From Escherichia phage vB_EcoP_PW8, in the sequence record PQ362703.1: a stretch of DNA of 64,000 nt; one strand, 5' to 3'. Positions 2,136 through 35,529 of this stretch are shown here, piece after piece. The notes beneath the pieces are model-generated. The model had not been told where the DNA came from, did no database searches, and worked only from the letters and a program-made list of their open reading frames with translations. The stretch's first letter is position 1. Each line of letters opens with the position of its first letter. A program made the translations under genes and the position numbers.

Positions 2136-2183
2136 GTAGCAACCTCTTTGTTTTTCTATAGGCCACATTGTTGTGGCCTTATT

Positions 2184-3317
2184 TTACAAAATAGTAATAG
2201 GAATCAATGTCACTACTACGTTACCAGGTACATAAGTAAGCTGATCACCTGTTACTGAGCCTACCCTAACGTTAGTAGGTAGCGGAGGTAGCTTATATGA
2301 CTTCTGCTGCCCAGTGACATAAATGACAGCTTTGTCATTAAGATAAGTAGTAGTATCTACATCTAGGATTACCTCAGAGTCTTTAATATTAAACCCCCGG
2401 GCAATCTCTTGAATGGTGCGATCTGTAGCATAGATAGTTTCAATATTACCGCCGATAGAGACAATCAATACATCATCAGTTGCCAGAGGTTCAGTTAGGA
2501 ATATGCGATGATTATTTGGGTCAATTGTATAGGACTTACTTGCCAGTCCCTTGTATCTGCGTAAACCGTTAACATAGATGGCAGGCACATCAAGGAATTC
2601 GAAAGGTATATCAATTACCTGCTCACCACCTACTGCATTACCGTAGTTATATAGCCAGTTAACAACACGCCAATTGTCAATGGTTGGCTTATCAGGAGAA
2701 GCAGGAACTCCTGTAAGGAAAGCGATTACTTCCTGCCCAGCTTCTAGTTCCTGTGCTAAGGTAATTACACCAGTAGTAGGATTAAACTCAAAACCCTTGC
2801 CTACTATCTGAACAAACCCATCTACAGTAATGAAGGGAACACCTACTGTATCTACGGGTACATTTACAGTTGTTTCCCCACCAACAGCATCATAGCTAAA
2901 CAAGATATATGTACTACTTCCTTCAGTAGGTTGGTCACCAGAACTAGAACTAACAGCTACCCAAGAACCGGAGGCAGAAGGGTTATCTGGAATAATCCCA
3001 GTAAGGTCGCCATCAACGTAAAGGTAGTCAGTGATTATACGCTTACCATCTATAGCAGTTTCGTAAATACGGGCATACTTAGCATCAGTAGTAAGAGCCT
3101 TAAGTTCGGCCTCAGACTGTATGCCAATAACCATTCCATACTGGTTCAGAAAATCATACAGGAGTTTAAGGTTACCCAAATTACAGTACACAGTACGAAC
3201 CACATGGTAAGCATTACCTAGTAGTGCATCTACCATTGGGTCATTGGAACTGTTCTGACAGTAAGGATTGGACCAATCCTGCTTTGCATCGAAGGGGTTG
3301 TGTGCGTTCATCGCCAT
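2184..3317 (-). CDS. virion/tail-associated structural protein
   Basis: 377-aa minus-strand ORF between the tail fiber-like gene and the terminase, in the late operon. No motif recognised. Confidence 0.4.
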   Translation of the reverse strand: MAMNAHNPFDAKQDWSNPYCQNSSNDPMVDALLGNAYHVVRTVYCNLGNLKLLYDFLNQYGMVIGIQSEAELKALTTDAKYARIYETAIDGKRIITDYLYVDGDLTGIIPDNPSASGSWVAVSSSSGDQPTEGSSTYILFSYDAVGGETTVNVPVDTVGVPFITVDGFVQIVGKGFEFNPTTGVITLAQELEAGQEVIAFLTGVPASPDKPTIDNWRVVNWLYNYGNAVGGEQVIDIPFEFLDVPAIYVNGLRRYKGLASKSYTIDPNNHRIFLTEPLATDDVLIVSIGGNIETIYATDRTIQEIARGFNIKDSEVILDVDTTTYLNDKAVIYVTGQQKSYKLPPLPTNVRVGSVTGDQLTYVPGNVVVTLIPITIL

Positions 3318-12138: not shown

Positions 12139-12399
12139 ATGACATATGAAGAACTGTGGTCTGCTCAAGTCAGAGCCAGAGCACTCACACGACACGATAT
12201 CTATTATGCATTACAAAATGAATTAAAGAGTCGTACTAAGCTGGGTCACATATCTGGTTTTATTAAGATACCTATGACTAGCCTAGTCTGGCCTTATCAA
12301 AAGAAAAGTAATGAGTTTAACAGTAATGGTCTGCATGTACGTATCGACTACCTTGGTCAAGAGAACAGTATTCGTATTACCTTTTGGACTAAGCGTTAG
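12139..12399 (+). CDS. hypothetical protein
   Basis: 86-aa ORF. Confidence 0.35.
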   Translation: MTYEELWSAQVRARALTRHDIYYALQNELKSRTKLGHISGFIKIPMTSLVWPYQKKSNEFNSNGLHVRIDYLGQENSIRITFWTKR

Positions 12400-12404
12400 G
12401 TAAC

Positions 12405-12419
12405 AGCTGCTCCGCAGCT
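12405..12419 (+). promoter_or_regulatory. candidate virion-RNAP hairpin promoter (AGCTGC-TCC-GCAGCT); could also act as terminator
   Basis: Perfect 6-bp stem with TCC loop, about 35 nt upstream of the RNAP II small-subunit gene. Followed by TTTTGG. Confidence 0.4.
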
Positions 12420-12452
12420 TTTGGTTATTAATCACATTTAGGAGAATAAGCG

Positions 12453-13268
12453 ATGTACTCATCTATTGAACATCAGAAGCAGCTCGAAAAACTATTCAAT
12501 AAAAATCAGCTCTTGCCTCGCATGAGGAAGGAATTCGAGGACTCCGAAGAAATTGACTTTAAGGCTTTTGCTGCCTATTTAGAAATTGATTATAAGCTGC
12601 TCATTGATGCAATGGTGCAGATTGCCCTACATAAACGTGCTGACATCCAAACTATGATTGGCTCTCTCATGAGTCATTCAGATGATGCTCAGTATATCGC
12701 TGACTGTCTGTATAAGATGGCAGAGAATGACTGCTTCAACTATGACCCTACCATCGACAAGTTCGGTGTTATTTATGAGATTAGTGAAGATGTACAGATG
12801 GAACTGGAAGCATTCCAGTACCCATTGCCTATCGTAAGTGCTCCTAAGCCTGTTAAGTGTAACCGTGATACTGGTTACTACGAAAGCAGAGGTAGCATCA
12901 TCCTCAAGAAGAACCATCATGAGATGGATGTCTGTCTTGACCATATCAACCGTATGAACAATCAACGTCTCTGCATTAACTGGGACGTTGCTAACTATGT
13001 AAAAGACTCCCGTCCTAACATGGATAAACCCAAAGAGGGTGAAACCCGTCAGGACTACGAGAAGCGTGTTAAAGCCTTTGAGAAGTACAGCCGTACAGCT
13101 AAGGAAGTAATGGAGCTAGTGACCAAAGAAGGTAATAACTTCTCCTTGGCTCATCGTTACGATAAGAGAGGACGCACTTACTGTTCCGGATATCATATAT
13201 CCTATCAAGGCACTTCCTATAACAAAGCTGTTATTGAATTTGCAGACAAAGAACTAGTAGAGGACTAA
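12453..13268 (+). CDS. phage RNA polymerase II small subunit (T7-like RNAP N-terminal part)
   Basis: 271 aa, immediately upstream of the catalytic subunit. Assignment by size and synteny with the N4 two-gene RNAP II. Confidence 0.45.
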   Translation: MYSSIEHQKQLEKLFNKNQLLPRMRKEFEDSEEIDFKAFAAYLEIDYKLLIDAMVQIALHKRADIQTMIGSLMSHSDDAQYIADCLYKMAENDCFNYDPTIDKFGVIYEISEDVQMELEAFQYPLPIVSAPKPVKCNRDTGYYESRGSIILKKNHHEMDVCLDHINRMNNQRLCINWDVANYVKDSRPNMDKPKEGETRQDYEKRVKAFEKYSRTAKEVMELVTKEGNNFSLAHRYDKRGRTYCSGYHISYQGTSYNKAVIEFADKELVED

Positions 13269-13774
13269 TGAAACCAACTCAAGCAGAGTTGATGGAACTA
13301 ATCGACTATGGCCCAGTGAATGGAACATTTCATTGGACTCATAGTCCATTGGTGTACATCAACGTAAGAGGTAAGGAGACTGGCTTATCAGGCTCCAGAG
13401 GACATCGAAAGATTGTCATTAATAAACAGGAATACAAGGCTCATCACGTAGCCTGGTGTATCATGACTGGTTCATGGCCTGAACAGGTGGATCATAATGA
13501 TACAAACCGGGCCAACAACCGTTGGAATAACCTACGTGAGGCAACTCATGCACAGAACATGTGCAATAGAACCATGAACAAGAATAACACTTCTGGATTT
13601 AAAGGTGTGCGTATTCGTAATGGTAAATACTTAGCCCAAATTCAAGTCAAAGGCACCAAAATAGCATTAGGTTCATTCACTGATCCAGTGGATGCTGCTA
13701 AGGCTTATGATGCTGCCGCAATTAAATACTTTGGTGAGTTCGCCAAAACAAACAAAGAACTCAATAACTATTAA
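13268..13774 (+). CDS. HNH homing endonuclease with AP2-like DNA-binding domain
   Basis: 168 aa. HNH-type signature (HHVAW...DHND...N) plus AP2-like C-terminus (SGFKGV...YGEFAKTN). ATG overlaps upstream stop (TAATG). Confidence 0.8.
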   Translation: MKPTQAELMELIDYGPVNGTFHWTHSPLVYINVRGKETGLSGSRGHRKIVINKQEYKAHHVAWCIMTGSWPEQVDHNDTNRANNRWNNLREATHAQNMCNRTMNKNNTSGFKGVRIRNGKYLAQIQVKGTKIALGSFTDPVDAAKAYDAAAIKYFGEFAKTNKELNNY

Positions 13775-13791
13775 TCCATTATGCGAGCCAA

Positions 13792-15036
13792 GTGGCTCAA
13801 GACGCTAAGGAACATAAAATGCAACTGTTAACCGCTCGTGAATACCTGAAAGTAGATATCGCCAATTCTTATGGCTTGGATAAAAAGACATGGGATGAAC
13901 GTATTGCTTGGTTTGATGAGAACGAAGCTAACCTGCTTAATCTGGTAGATGAAGCTGAAGATTCTGCTCTGTTCTTTGCTGGTGTAAACGCATGGAAAGA
14001 TATGAAAGCAGGTAAACCTATTGGTTATGCCGTAGCTCTTGATGCTACATCATCTGGCTTGCAGTTACTGGCCTGCCTGACTGGTGACCGTTCTGCTGCT
14101 GAACTGTGTAACGTAGTTAACTACATGGGCGAGAATGGTAAGCCATTACGTCGTGATGCTTATACAGTCATCTATCACAAGATGCTGGACATCCTTGGTG
14201 AAGCATCCCGTATTAAACGTAGTGACACTAAGCAGGCAGTTATGACTGCATTCTATGGTTCAGAAGCCAAGCCTAAAGAAGTATTCGGTGAAGGTATTCG
14301 TCTCAAGACTTTTGAGAATGTAATGGAAACTGTTGCTAGTGGTCCTTGGGCACTTAACAAGTTCTTACTGCAATGTGGTAATCCAGATGCCAACCGTTAT
14401 GTATGGGTACTTCCTGACAACTTCCACGCTGTCATTAAGGTCATGATTCCAGAAGTACAGACTGTTAACTTCTTAGGTAAGCCATTTGACATCACTCGTA
14501 TGGTTCAAGGTACTGAAGAGAAGACCCGTATGCTCTCTGCTAACATCACCCACTCTATTGATGGAATGGTGGTACGTGAGATGCTGCGTCGTTGTAACTT
14601 CGACATGAACCAGATGAGCTATGTTAAGGCTCTTTGTGAGGGAACTGGTGAATACACGGTAGGTTCTGATGATAATTATGAAATGGTTAATACACTATGG
14701 ACTAGTTATGAGAAGTCTGGATTCCTGTCTACCCGTATCTTTGATTATCTGGACTCAGAAACCATTGCATTGGTAGATACAGATGTAATCTTAGCTATGC
14801 TCAATACTATGCCTAAGAAGCCATTCCCTGTAATGACTGTACATGACTGCTTCCGTTGCCATCCTAACTACGGTAATGACCTACGTCGTCAGTACAATCA
14901 GATTCTGTCCGACATTGCTAAGAGTGACCTACTGGGTTTCATCCTGTCTCAGGTACTAGGACAAGAGTTCTCTGCTGGTAAGCTGGATGACAGCCTCTGG
15001 CAGGACATTCTTGAAACAGACTATGCGTTGAGTTAA
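13792..15036 (+). CDS. phage RNA polymerase II catalytic subunit (T7-like single-subunit RNAP)
   Basis: 414 aa. T7 RNAP-like motif A (ALDATSSGLQLLAC), motif B (RSDTKQAVMTAFYGS) and motif C (VHDCF). Confidence 0.75.
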   Translation: MAQDAKEHKMQLLTAREYLKVDIANSYGLDKKTWDERIAWFDENEANLLNLVDEAEDSALFFAGVNAWKDMKAGKPIGYAVALDATSSGLQLLACLTGDRSAAELCNVVNYMGENGKPLRRDAYTVIYHKMLDILGEASRIKRSDTKQAVMTAFYGSEAKPKEVFGEGIRLKTFENVMETVASGPWALNKFLLQCGNPDANRYVWVLPDNFHAVIKVMIPEVQTVNFLGKPFDITRMVQGTEEKTRMLSANITHSIDGMVVREMLRRCNFDMNQMSYVKALCEGTGEYTVGSDDNYEMVNTLWTSYEKSGFLSTRIFDYLDSETIALVDTDVILAMLNTMPKKPFPVMTVHDCFRCHPNYGNDLRRQYNQILSDIAKSDLLGFILSQVLGQEFSAGKLDDSLWQDILETDYALS

Positions 15037-15043
15037 TAAACTA

Positions 15044-15076
15044 GCCTCATTCCTTCGGGAGTGAGGCCTATTTTTT
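15044..15076 (+). terminator. intrinsic terminator (10-bp stem, TTCG loop)
   Basis: GCCTCATTCC-ttcg-GGAGTGAGGC followed by CTATTTTTTG. Confidence 0.65.
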
Positions 15077-15093
15077 GCTTGGAGGTAGCAACT

Positions 15094-15276
15094 ATGCTAA
15101 TCAATTTTGAAGTAATCTTTCAGCTAATACTGATAGTTTTATCTGTACTGGTTCTGGCTACGATAATCCGTGCCCACAAATCTAAGTTTGCTTACTGCTA
15201 CTATGGAGCATACTCACTTGGCTGTTTTGTAATAGCAGGATGGATAGCTTTTGCTATCTACTGCGTAAACAACTAA
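15094..15276 (+). CDS. small membrane protein
   Basis: 60 aa from ATG 15094 (GGAGG RBS). Two hydrophobic helices. Track start 15061 lies inside the upstream terminator. Confidence 0.35.
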   Translation: MLINFEVIFQLILIVLSVLVLATIIRAHKSKFAYCYYGAYSLGCFVIAGWIAFAIYCVNN

Positions 15277-15277
15277 C

Positions 15278-15303
15278 CCTCCTAACGGAGGATTTATTTT
15301 TTT
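15278..15303 (+). terminator. intrinsic terminator (short stem)
   Basis: CCTCC-taac-GGAGG followed by ATTTATTTTTTT. Confidence 0.5.
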
Positions 15304-17224: not shown

Positions 17225-18098
17225 TAACTAATAGGGCTTTGTGAGGGTGACCTCACATCGAAAGCTATCTAAATGGGGAAACTCCTACTATTACAGGGAA
17301 ACCATGATACACTCTGGTTTCCCAATAGAGGACAATCCCATGCTAAATATTAATGAAAGTTGGAAAGACATTGTTGGTTATGAAGGTTACTACGAAGTCT
17401 CTACGCATGGTCGTGTTAGAAATACCCATACAGGTATGATAAAGAACCAATGTGTACAGACTAGCGGCAAGTATCTACAAGTTAGTTTGTGGAAAGGCAA
17501 CAAAGAAAAAAGATGTTTAGTACATCGCTTAGTTGCTATAGCCTTCATTCCTAACCCCGAAGACAAGCCTCAAGTAAACCATTTAGACAAAAATGATAAG
17601 AACAACCATGTTCAAAATTTGGAATGGGTAACCATATCCGAGAATCATTTACATGCATTTGCTAATGGTAGAAAAGGCTCCAAATCCCGACTAGGTGAAA
17701 AAACTAGTAAAGCCTCTCAGTATCGATATGTGTACTGGGATACCAAAAGAGCTGTTTGGAAAGCATCTATAAAGATAGACGGCAAAACAGTAAACATTGG
17801 TAGATTCAATACTGACCTAGAAGCAGCTTTAGCCGCTGATGAGGCAATTGATTCCTGGGGCTGGGATAGAATTAAAAACTTTCAATAATTAAATGCCTAA
17901 CGACTATCGAAAACACGTAGTGATACGGAAGTGAGTAGAGTAGGGTGCAAGCCAATGGCACTCGAAAAGATAGCCACCCGGACAGGTAAAGCTGAGGGTG
18001 TTGATATAGTCTGGTCTGCGTAGTAATACGTAGCTGTATATGTCCAACTCGCATATACGGGTAGAGCCTTGCAAACTCTACTGAACATAACGTAGTGG
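17225..18098 (+). mobile_element. group I intron carrying an HNH homing endonuclease gene
   Basis: P-like (17271-17303, GGGGAAAC/CAGGGAAACC), Q-like (17334-17343 AATCCCATGC), R-like (17895-17909 GCCTAACGACTATCG) and S-like (18001-18014 TTGATATAGTCTGG) elements. Exon ACCU can pair with intron GGGU at 17245-17248. Last intron nucleotide is G at 18098. Splicing restores a DLLP motif. Confidence 0.6.
17340..17888 (+). CDS. intron-encoded HNH homing endonuclease
   Basis: Motifs WKDIVGYEGYYEVSTHGRVRN, HRLVAIAF...NHLDKNDKNNHVQNLEWVT and an AP2-like C-terminus. Start uncertain: ATG 17340 or 17304, or track start GTG 17241. Confidence 0.75.
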   Translation: MLNINESWKDIVGYEGYYEVSTHGRVRNTHTGMIKNQCVQTSGKYLQVSLWKGNKEKRCLVHRLVAIAFIPNPEDKPQVNHLDKNDKNNHVQNLEWVTISENHLHAFANGRKGSKSRLGEKTSKASQYRYVYWDTKRAVWKASIKIDGKTVNIGRFNTDLEAALAADEAIDSWGWDRIKNFQ

Positions 18099-35031: not shown

Positions 35032-35529
35032 ATGAAACAGAGGATTGCCCATGACAGGCTTTTACAGCTTGTTAGTTATGACCCTATTTCCGGAATTTTT
35101 ACTCGTAGGAATACTGGGAAGGTATCCGGTTACCTAATGAAGAGTGGCTACACTCAGCTCCGTGTGGATAGCGTGTTGTACTATGGGCATATCCTTGCAT
35201 GGTTCTATGTGCATGGCGTATGGCCTACGGATAGGATTGACCATAAGGACAATATACGCCATCACAACTGGATAGATAACCTCAGAGAAGCGACCCACAA
35301 GCAGAATAACCAGAGTGCTGTTTTATCTAAAACAAACACATCTGGATTTAAGGGGGTATCCTTTTCAAAGAATTTAGGTAAATACAGAGCAACTATTTGG
35401 GTTAACAGCAAACCAATTACATTAGGTTTCACAGATGACCCAAGAGAAGCTGCTGTTCTCTATGATGAAGCTGCTATAACTCATTATGGTGAGTTTGCTA
35501 AAACTAATAAGCAATTGGGACTGTTATGA
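35032..35529 (+). CDS. HNH homing endonuclease with AP2-like domain, paralog of the 13268 gene
   Basis: 165 aa. HILAWFYVHG...DHKDN...N, then SGFKGV and YGEFAKTNKQL, closely matching the 13268 protein. Confidence 0.8.
   Translation: MKQRIAHDRLLQLVSYDPISGIFTRRNTGKVSGYLMKSGYTQLRVDSVLYYGHILAWFYVHGVWPTDRIDHKDNIRHHNWIDNLREATHKQNNQSAVLSKTNTSGFKGVSFSKNLGKYRATIWVNSKPITLGFTDDPREAAVLYDEAAITHYGEFAKTNKQLGLL

Follow-up and report, generated by a model that had tools for sequence, protein, structure and literature searches.

What is a nuclease gene doing between the two subunit genes of an essential RNA polymerase? The question arises from the genome of Escherichia phage vB_EcoP_PW8 (sequence record PQ362703.1), of which a stretch of 64,000 nucleotides (nt), hereafter the window, was analyzed. 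An earlier note on this DNA had placed an HNH endonuclease gene exactly between the genes for the two subunits of the phage RNA polymerase II (RNAPII), and all three open reading frames (ORFs) were indeed found there, all in the same (+) orientation. The middle gene (13268..13774) encodes 168 amino acids (aa) with HNH_3 and AP2 domains. From sequence comparison, we consider it likely that this protein is an active, free-standing homing endonuclease, which would cut endonuclease-free alleles close to the small-subunit 3′ end, in the DNA that encodes a T/DxxGR motif.

The flanking genes define the setting. Megablast with 12139..15300 matched 58 phage records, nearly all from Escherichia or Shigella Gamaleyaviruses, with PD205 the nearest at 95%; the phage genome is N4-like and belongs to the genus Gamaleyavirus (G7C-like). 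The upstream gene (12453..13268, 271 aa) encodes the small subunit, a homologue of N4 gp15 (RNAP1). It matched PHROG 2166, 'N4-like RNA polymerase', at 1.8e-116, and its residues 3-269 aligned with residues 2-268 of chain A of PDB 6DT7 (N4 RNAP1) at an E value of 1.8e-118. The downstream gene (13819..15036, 405 aa) encodes the large subunit, a homologue of N4 gp16 (RNAP2) that contains polymerase motifs A, B, and C. It matched Pfam RNA_pol at 1.3e-14, PHROG 2051 at 2e-175, and chain B of 6DT7 at E 4.9e-194 (residues 1-405 onto 1-404). Judged by these alignments, the flanking genes are full-length homologues of the separately encoded N4 RNAP1 and RNAP2 chains. The earlier note had the large-subunit gene run from GTG 13792 to 15036. 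The gene stands, but its start is almost certainly ATG 13819, because an AAGGA Shine-Dalgarno sequence lies 7 nt upstream of this codon, the alignment with N4 gp16 begins at residue 1, and the annotated starts in relatives point to it. GTG 13792 falls within an intergenic stem-loop.

By sequence and predicted structure, the endonuclease appears to be an intact HNH enzyme. The protein matched Pfam HNH_3 over aa 56-98 with 52.4 bits (cut-off 24.8; E 4.2e-14) and PHROG 99 at 1e-61. An AP2 domain follows the HNH domain toward the C-terminus (~aa 108-162), as in the HNH-AP2 architecture, with a sequence match below the Pfam cut-off. The earlier note had made its reading depend on catalytic residues being present in a proper alignment; D75, H76, N88, and N97 are present and invariant in an alignment of 41 homologues, and we take them, by analogy with I-HmuI, to be catalytic or metal-binding residues. 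An AlphaFold model built from the 41-sequence alignment (mean predicted local distance difference test score [pLDDT] 93, predicted template modeling score [pTM] 0.81) resembled both I-HmuI and plant AP2 domains, so a fold similar to that of a solved HNH homing endonuclease was found in the predicted model. The ORF was full length in 12/12 carrier loci examined. Purifying selection on the gene is indicated by its ratio of nonsynonymous (dN) to synonymous (dS) substitution rates, which was 0.05-0.16 among the variants of the lineage (Nei-Gojobori method).

The distribution of this gene is sporadic. In a tblastn search of 50,697 phage records, close copies were found only in PD205 (97%; labelled 'hypothetical protein') and Mimir124 (90.5%; labelled 'HNH endonuclease'), both at the RNAPII junction, and the next matches, ~44% identical, were the other paralogue that precedes an exonuclease gene. 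The endonuclease is thus carried by 2 of ~40 distinct Gamaleyavirus genomes in GenBank. We measured junction spans in these genomes with a query consisting of the two flanks only, and read the occupants from the fetched loci. The flank-to-flank span ranged from 61 to ~690 nt and fell into discrete classes. The junction was empty (61-62 nt) in EC1-UPM and phiG17 and held small ORFs of 53, 79, or 37 aa, in several combinations, in ~26 genomes. The remaining classes were endonucleases: type A, the endonuclease of 13268..13774 (PD205 and Mimir124); type B, another HNH_3/AP2 protein ~30% identical to type A (UE-M6, UE-M3, and UE-S5a); type C, 193 aa with a NUMOD1 domain (G7C, PGN829.1, ST4, and Bas96, with Moonfish assigned by span only); and type D, 204 aa and 32% identical to type C (pSb-1 and HK2). 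An endonuclease of one of four lineages therefore occupies the junction in ~30% of the genus, and the type A lineage in ~5%. The synteny comparison suggested in the earlier note bears out that the gene is not at this position in all relatives, most of which lack a type A endonuclease, and it reveals a presence/absence polymorphism at one site among close relatives. On this comparison, the RNAPII junction appears to be an endonuclease hotspot, occupied by one of four lineages, by small ORFs, or by nothing.

The preference for this site extends beyond the genus. A search of a 5.8-billion-protein collection returned homologues at 90, 80, 75, and ~60% identity, and the genomic context was read for three of them. 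Two (P0002, 80% identical, and P0003, 75% identical and present on 16 contigs) lie on ~70-kb N4-like contigs, where they begin exactly at the small-subunit stop codon and are followed by the large-subunit gene. The third (P0004, 63%), from a 153-kb contig filed under a Mesorhizobium assembly, likewise overlaps the stop codon of a small-subunit homologue. The polymerase subunits on this contig are 46% and 48% identical to those of the window, below the 63% of the endonuclease. After the endonuclease gene, the contig contains a second, displaced small-subunit 3′ end (EFANQE...), which we read as the footprint of an insertion that carried its own replacement for the end of the gene. All homologues whose context was read, down to 63% identity, are located after the small-subunit gene. 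Stronger conservation of an endonuclease than of its essential neighbours, at a constant site, matches the prediction of site-specific homing between lineages.

Comparison of substitution rates, calculated by the Nei-Gojobori method for the endonuclease variants and for the flanking polymerase genes, points to recent horizontal movement and to a history of the endonuclease gene that is discordant with the backbone. Among the variants, dS was 0.8-2.2 in the endonuclease gene versus 0.2-0.6 in the polymerase genes. Between Mimir124 and a locus from IMG/VR (L006), dS was 0.28 in both polymerase genes and 0.01 in the endonuclease gene, and between two further carrier loci (L018 and L020) the corresponding values were 0.31-0.38 and 0.04. 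With positions counted from the last sense codon of the small-subunit gene, and the endonuclease stop at ~+510, Mimir124 and L006 share a block from -113 to ~+552 with 2 mismatches. For L018, L019, and L020, whose backbones differ at dS 0.31-0.38, the shared block extends from -206 to +512. The right end of the block was at the endonuclease stop codon or within ~45 nt of it. Flanking sequence had thus moved together with the gene, as in co-conversion, and the transferred unit appears to consist of the endonuclease gene and 110-200 nt from the end of the small-subunit gene.

The same region stands out when the flanks of 31 aligned genomes are compared. Over its first 698 nt, the small-subunit gene shows 91-97% identity across the genus and no clustering by junction type. 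In the terminal ~112 nt (13154..13265, + strand, encoding H-R-Y-D-K-R-G-R-T-Y...), identity falls to 58-75% between type A carriers and all others except ST4, and here the sequences cluster by junction occupant. The encoded peptide, H(R/K)YDKRGRTY...NKAV.EFADKELV, is nearly unchanged; because it barely varies, the divergence of this tract must be mostly synonymous and near saturation. It contains what we take to be the T/DxxGR motif of single-subunit polymerases. The tract is identical in Mimir124 and L006 despite their backbone dS of 0.28. From these sequence patterns, 13154..13265 is likely both the co-conversion tract and the region of the endonuclease target.

Within the tract, one codon separates carriers from non-carriers. 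At 13155..13157 (+ strand) the window has CGT (Arg), and the codon is CGY in 11/11 type A carriers and AAA or AAG (Lys) in 19/19 compared non-carriers. These are the only columns in either polymerase gene (2 kb) without a base common to the 11 carriers and the 19 non-carriers, and 2000 random groupings of 11 genomes, evaluated for the small-subunit gene only, yielded 0 such columns. Adjacent codons vary freely at synonymous sites among the carriers. ST4 combines a type C endonuclease with a type A left tract (93.8% identical, Arg codon included), which would fit the outcome expected if one endonuclease had displaced another. The differences fixed in type C genomes are located in the first 36 nt of the large-subunit gene, which is visibly recoded there. 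This suggests that the type C endonuclease works from the other, large-subunit side.

These observations fit intron-less homing of the kind described for the Seg and Mob endonucleases of T4. The endonuclease gene would be transcribed with the early RNAPII operon, and its translation would be coupled to that of the small subunit: a GAGGA sequence is followed by overlapping stop and start codons, TAATG (13260..13270, + strand), as read from the sequence, and this overlap is presumed to provide the coupling. The endonuclease-free EC1-UPM has AACGAAGATTAA at the GAGGA position and no GAGGA. When related phages infect one cell together, the protein would nick or cut the genomes without the endonuclease. 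The site would lie in or near the small-subunit 3′ end, in the DNA for H-K-Y-D-K-R-G-R-T-Y (T/DxxGR), ~60-115 nt upstream of the insertion point. Recombinational repair templated by the carrier genome would then transfer the endonuclease gene, along with the final ~110-200 nt of the small-subunit gene, to the recipient. The carrier allele would be protected by its differences along the tract, which invariably include the Lys-to-Arg change at 13155-13157. We place the target at the Lys codon because the left boundary of the minimal block (-113) coincides with the fixed codon (-110 to -108). The suggestion in the earlier note that the endonuclease may target the RNAPII junction is compatible with the site fidelity and the flank co-transfer, but the likelier target is the small-subunit 3′ end rather than the junction itself.

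Several points weigh against this mechanism. Cleavage, its position, its form (a nick or a double-strand break), and immunity through the diverged tract are all inferred from sequence. Genomes with other endonuclease types differ in the tract as well, and, as ST4 illustrates, the tract is not strictly tied to type A. Instead of conferring immunity, the Arg codon could be a marker that hitch-hiked from a donor with a native Arg; N4 reads H-R here. Conversely, the Mesorhizobium-associated relative has Lys despite carrying a homologue, so variants may differ in specificity. The 11 carrier genomes, moreover, may stem from few invasion events and hence be non-independent. Finally, the spacing from GAGGA to ATG is merely 3 nt, so expression of the endonuclease leans on the presumed coupling.

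Other explanations would account for parts of this pattern. Strong purifying selection (dN/dS 0.05-0.16) on an ORF that lies inside an essential early operon and is presumably coupled to it in translation could reflect a domesticated nuclease or DNA-binding protein that benefits the phage and is not purely selfish, through marker exclusion of competing N4-like phages, host DNA degradation, or AP2 regulation of the RNAPII operon; the paralogue at 35032, found ahead of an exonuclease gene in several groups of phages, shows that long persistence of such genes is possible. We regard domestication as unlikely. The gene is dispensable, since 2 of ~40 close relatives carry it and two have an empty site, and its place is taken elsewhere by unrelated endonuclease genes or by small ORFs. 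That nearly identical copies occur in diverged backbones indicates transfer and not vertical retention, and competitive exclusion would in any case be a by-product of homing and therefore no true alternative. Very unlikely, in our view, is a decaying and inactive remnant that became locally fixed and is kept through its linkage to the polymerase genes. A gene far from fixation in the genus, full length in all 12 carrier loci with invariant catalytic residues and a dN/dS well under 1, does not resemble such a remnant; its model is confident and well folded, and the block transfer between backbones looks recent. Nevertheless, the AP2 score is under the Pfam cut-off, endonuclease activity is predicted from sequence, and homing endonuclease genes are expected to degenerate after fixation (PMC5418858).

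The gene might also be passive cargo, shuffled by ordinary homologous recombination at a recombination-prone gene boundary. Non-nuclease small ORFs (53, 79, and 37 aa) do occupy the same junction in various combinations, and an unrelated two-allele cassette in the large-subunit gene points to general mosaicism of the region. Yet it would be hard to explain in this way why four different endonuclease lineages are concentrated on one junction, or why the site is kept where the polymerase is only 46-48% identical and the endonuclease 63%. The transferred block is asymmetric, always including the small-subunit 3′ tract and ending at the endonuclease stop codon, and one codon is perfectly associated with carriage. 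Passive shuffling therefore strikes us as highly improbable. The homing endonuclease reading is supported by the integrity of the enzyme, purifying selection, sporadic distribution, recent horizontal movement, site fidelity across genera, and left-flank co-transfer.

Three further candidate interpretations of the gene and its context were rejected. Terminase-associated HNH proteins adjoin the terminase and portal genes and are conserved in all relatives; this gene sits in the RNAPII operon, is missing from most relatives, and is dispensable, which speaks against an HNH packaging cofactor. An intron or ribozyme context was dismissed: an Rfam scan of 12300..15200 (E<=1) matched no family, and thus no known intron family, stop and start codons delimit each ORF separately, and N4 RNAPII is a natural heterodimer. 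The endonuclease gene appears from its sequence context to be free-standing, outside any intron or intein. A sigma-70 promoter of its own was likewise dropped. No sigma-70-like site was found on the + strand within the three-gene unit, and the region contained 1 site versus 8.1 expected, a scan that is uninformative for N4-type transcription.

Several hairpins frame the locus. A stem-loop, GAGCC-AAGT-GGCTC (13785..13798, + strand), lies upstream of the large-subunit ribosome-binding site. It is part of the native intergenic allele, not of the endonuclease insert, because the identical sequence is present in the endonuclease-free phiG17 and in type B genomes. Most junction types have a stem-loop ~20 nt upstream of this ribosome-binding site, with differing sequences (GAGCC-AAGT-GGCTC, GGCTCTCC-ATA-GTGGGGAGCC, and GGGC-ATAA-GCCC across loci L002-L031). 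In type C a hairpin lies instead within the 3′ end of the endonuclease gene, and none was seen in the Mesorhizobium-associated locus. The intergenic stem-loop looks like a conserved structure. Terminator-like hairpins flank the three-gene unit on both sides. The downstream one (15044..15067, + strand) resembles an intrinsic terminator, with a 10-bp stem containing 6 G-C pairs and a T-run (tail CTATTTTTTG), and would close the unit of small subunit, endonuclease, and large subunit. The upstream one, AGCTGC-TCC-GCAGCT followed by TTTGG (12405..12419), with a 6-bp stem and a 3-nt loop, was flagged as terminator-like in a scan and is located 34 nt 5′ of the small-subunit ATG; its shape is also reminiscent of the hairpin promoters of the N4 virion RNA polymerase.

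Other features were noted in and around the junction. The small ORFs were seen in ECBP1, PhAPEC5, IME11, ZQ2, E20, CU10EC, and one further locus (L012); those of 53 and 79 aa had no Pfam match. The empty junction of phiG17 reads TAA-CCACT-TATTAATCCACTATGCGAGCC and shares the right flank, including the equivalents of the last codon and stop of the endonuclease gene, and its left tract is of the Lys (baseline) type. By its sequence, this junction may be the native empty state or may have been left by a deletion; the spacer CCACT is similar to the 5′ end of the endonuclease gene, in a match too short to show a deletion footprint. Upstream of the small-subunit gene, an ORF of ~76-84 aa is annotated in Mimir124, 24-32N, ST4, HK2, and E20, and the window has 53 nt only. 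In L018 (a contig from ENA ERZ1090852), an extra 158-aa HNH_3/AP2 ORF (2183..2659) lies directly upstream of the small-subunit gene, which thus has endonuclease genes on both ends. In the large-subunit gene, ~14590..14830 (aa ~258-338, just before motif C, 'VHDCF') is a two-allele cassette. Its groups have ~45-60% nucleotide identity and encode clearly different peptides (DMNQMSYVKALCEGTGEYTVGSDDNYEMV vs DRDLVEAVRELCDEGPSEYGEIAGNLEKV), and they are unlinked to junction type. The large-subunit gene of pSb-1 has a frameshift after ...HSIDG, with its tblastn match in two pieces, which reflects either a sequencing error or a pseudogene.

The junction gene is not the only one of its kind in the window. 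A paralogous HNH_3/AP2 endonuclease of 165 aa (35032..35529, + strand), identified by Pfam matches, lies upstream of an exonuclease gene. The earlier note had called the two genes paralogs, and their alignment agrees (41% identity over 162 residues, E 7e-39). Of the sequence blocks it described as shared, YGEFAKTN occurs in the paralogue only, and the 13268..13774 protein reads FGEFAKTN. Both of the HNH genes that it listed are real, but the window contains four HNH-type ORFs. The other two were detected with a profile built from the 41-homologue alignment: one of 215 aa (17241..17888) with Pfam NUMOD4, HNH_3, and AP2 matches, and one of 163 aa (39181..39672) that scored 1e-11 against the profile and matched no Pfam family at E<=0.01. 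The 35032 gene is a separate insertion at another locus. A homologue lies at a comparable genome position in many other Gamaleyaviruses. Its homologues precede a gene annotated 'exonuclease' in other Gamaleyaviruses, in Pseudomonas phage inbricus, and in Burkholderia phages, which suggests that this association is far more stable than the association with the polymerase junction.

Did the endonuclease also split the polymerase? We rejected the 13268..13774 insertion as the cause, as N4, EC1-UPM, and phiG17 have a split polymerase without an endonuclease. N4 has a split RNAPII without any homing endonuclease, and the count of HNH genes is 0 in N4 and five in G7C (PMC3670811). The two-gene polymerase is the normal N4 RNAPII heterodimer, and the split is older than the insertion. 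For the origin of the split itself, a homing endonuclease has been proposed to have divided an ancestral single-chain polymerase (Amgarten et al. 2017, PMC5418858). When 1.84 billion cluster representatives were scanned in full with HMMER, using the small subunit as query, 803 homologues were returned. Among the best 150 of these 803, 4 of the 141 near-full-length proteins were unsplit, single-chain N4 RNAPII homologues of 648-703 aa (P0133, P0205, P0233, and P0251), in which the small-subunit C-terminus runs into the large-subunit N-terminus via a linker of 5-15 residues. In a crude neighbour-joining tree with midpoint rooting, the four fell in four different clades, among split forms. This pattern is compatible with re-fusions or with repeated splitting at one permissive site, and it neither supports nor refutes the published hypothesis.

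A broader scenario, which we find doubtful on present evidence, is that the junction is an ancient, recurrent landing site across Schitoviridae, that the HNH-AP2 lineage tracks T/DxxGR DNA across genera, and that the split polymerase arose and stays split through insertions, with occasional re-fusions represented by the four unsplit homologues. If this were true, the subunit architecture of an essential polymerase would owe its shape to a selfish element, and the Lys/Arg codon would be a directly testable determinant of immunity.

The locus offers a compact natural system for studying competition between homing endonucleases, with four lineages and one 60-nt junction in an essential operon. 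The flank signatures contrast, being left-sided for type A and right-sided for the G7C type, and ST4 combines both. They lead to a testable prediction: the target should lie in T/DxxGR-coding DNA, and an AAR-to-CGY change should block cleavage. The locus also bears on the published, untested idea that endonuclease insertion made the two-subunit N4 RNAPII. For annotation, the large-subunit start is corrected, and 'hypothetical protein' entries at the junction, such as that in PD205, can be read as homing endonucleases.

Among the closest known systems are MobE and the Seg proteins of phage T4, which are said to be free-standing endonucleases that perform intron-less homing, cleave a neighbouring conserved gene, and co-convert flanking markers. 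Publications on such endonucleases include Edgell, Gibb and Belfort 2010 (PMC2988022) and Wilson and Edgell 2009 (PMC2790892). Our gene resembles MobE and the Seg proteins in lying free-standing between conserved genes, in its sporadic occurrence among relatives, and in flank co-conversion. MobE reportedly lacks an AP2 domain and belongs to the ribonucleotide reductase locus of T-even phages, where activity and homing in trans are said to have been demonstrated experimentally. In contrast, an AP2 domain is present here, and activity and homing are deduced from sequence. In fold, the predicted model matches I-HmuI of Bacillus phage SPO1 (PDB 1U3E). I-HmuI, by contrast, is reported to be intron-encoded, to nick one strand, and to have a helix-turn-helix C-terminal domain; the 13268..13774 protein is free-standing and has an AP2 domain instead.

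An endonuclease gene between two parts of a split enzyme also recalls phage Aeh1. There, an endonuclease gene reportedly lies between the halves of a polypeptide that is single in relatives, and the halves are said still to assemble into an active enzyme. This MobE insertion, splitting nrdA into 'genes in pieces', is cited in PMC5418858. Unlike in Aeh1, the split here is ancestral to essentially the whole N4-like group and is found without an endonuclease in N4 and some Gamaleyaviruses, so the 13268..13774 insertion is not its cause.

HNH-AP2 proteins form a recognised class of homing endonucleases, termed 'IPA-HNH' in Vibrio phage ICP1 (Barth et al. 2023, PMC10448857), and the title of that paper puts nuclease genes at boundaries of genetic exchange between phages. 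ICP1 differs in phage family and loci, and its HNH domain was revealed by profile-profile searches only, whereas the 13268..13774 protein matches Pfam HNH_3 directly.

In arrangement, G7C itself offers a close parallel. N4-like phages have 0-8 genes between the polymerase subunit genes, and G7C has the 'gene 15.1' endonuclease there, in what was published as the 'G7C-type' RNA polymerase arrangement (Amgarten et al. 2017, PMC5418858). Our locus shares the placement of an endonuclease gene between the subunit genes, but the G7C occupant (type C, 193 aa, NUMOD1, annotated as endonuclease VII-like) has no detectable relation to the HNH_3/AP2 protein. The gene of this occupant extends over the start codon of the large-subunit gene, and its fixed flank differences fall at the 5′ end of the latter, not at the 3′ end of the small-subunit gene. 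The arrangement was therefore already published for G7C, and 13268..13774 is a different endonuclease family at the same junction. What is new here is the hotspot with four lineages, the asymmetric co-transferred blocks, the single diagnostic codon, and the fidelity to one site across genera. The locus illustrates well a phenomenon that was already known.

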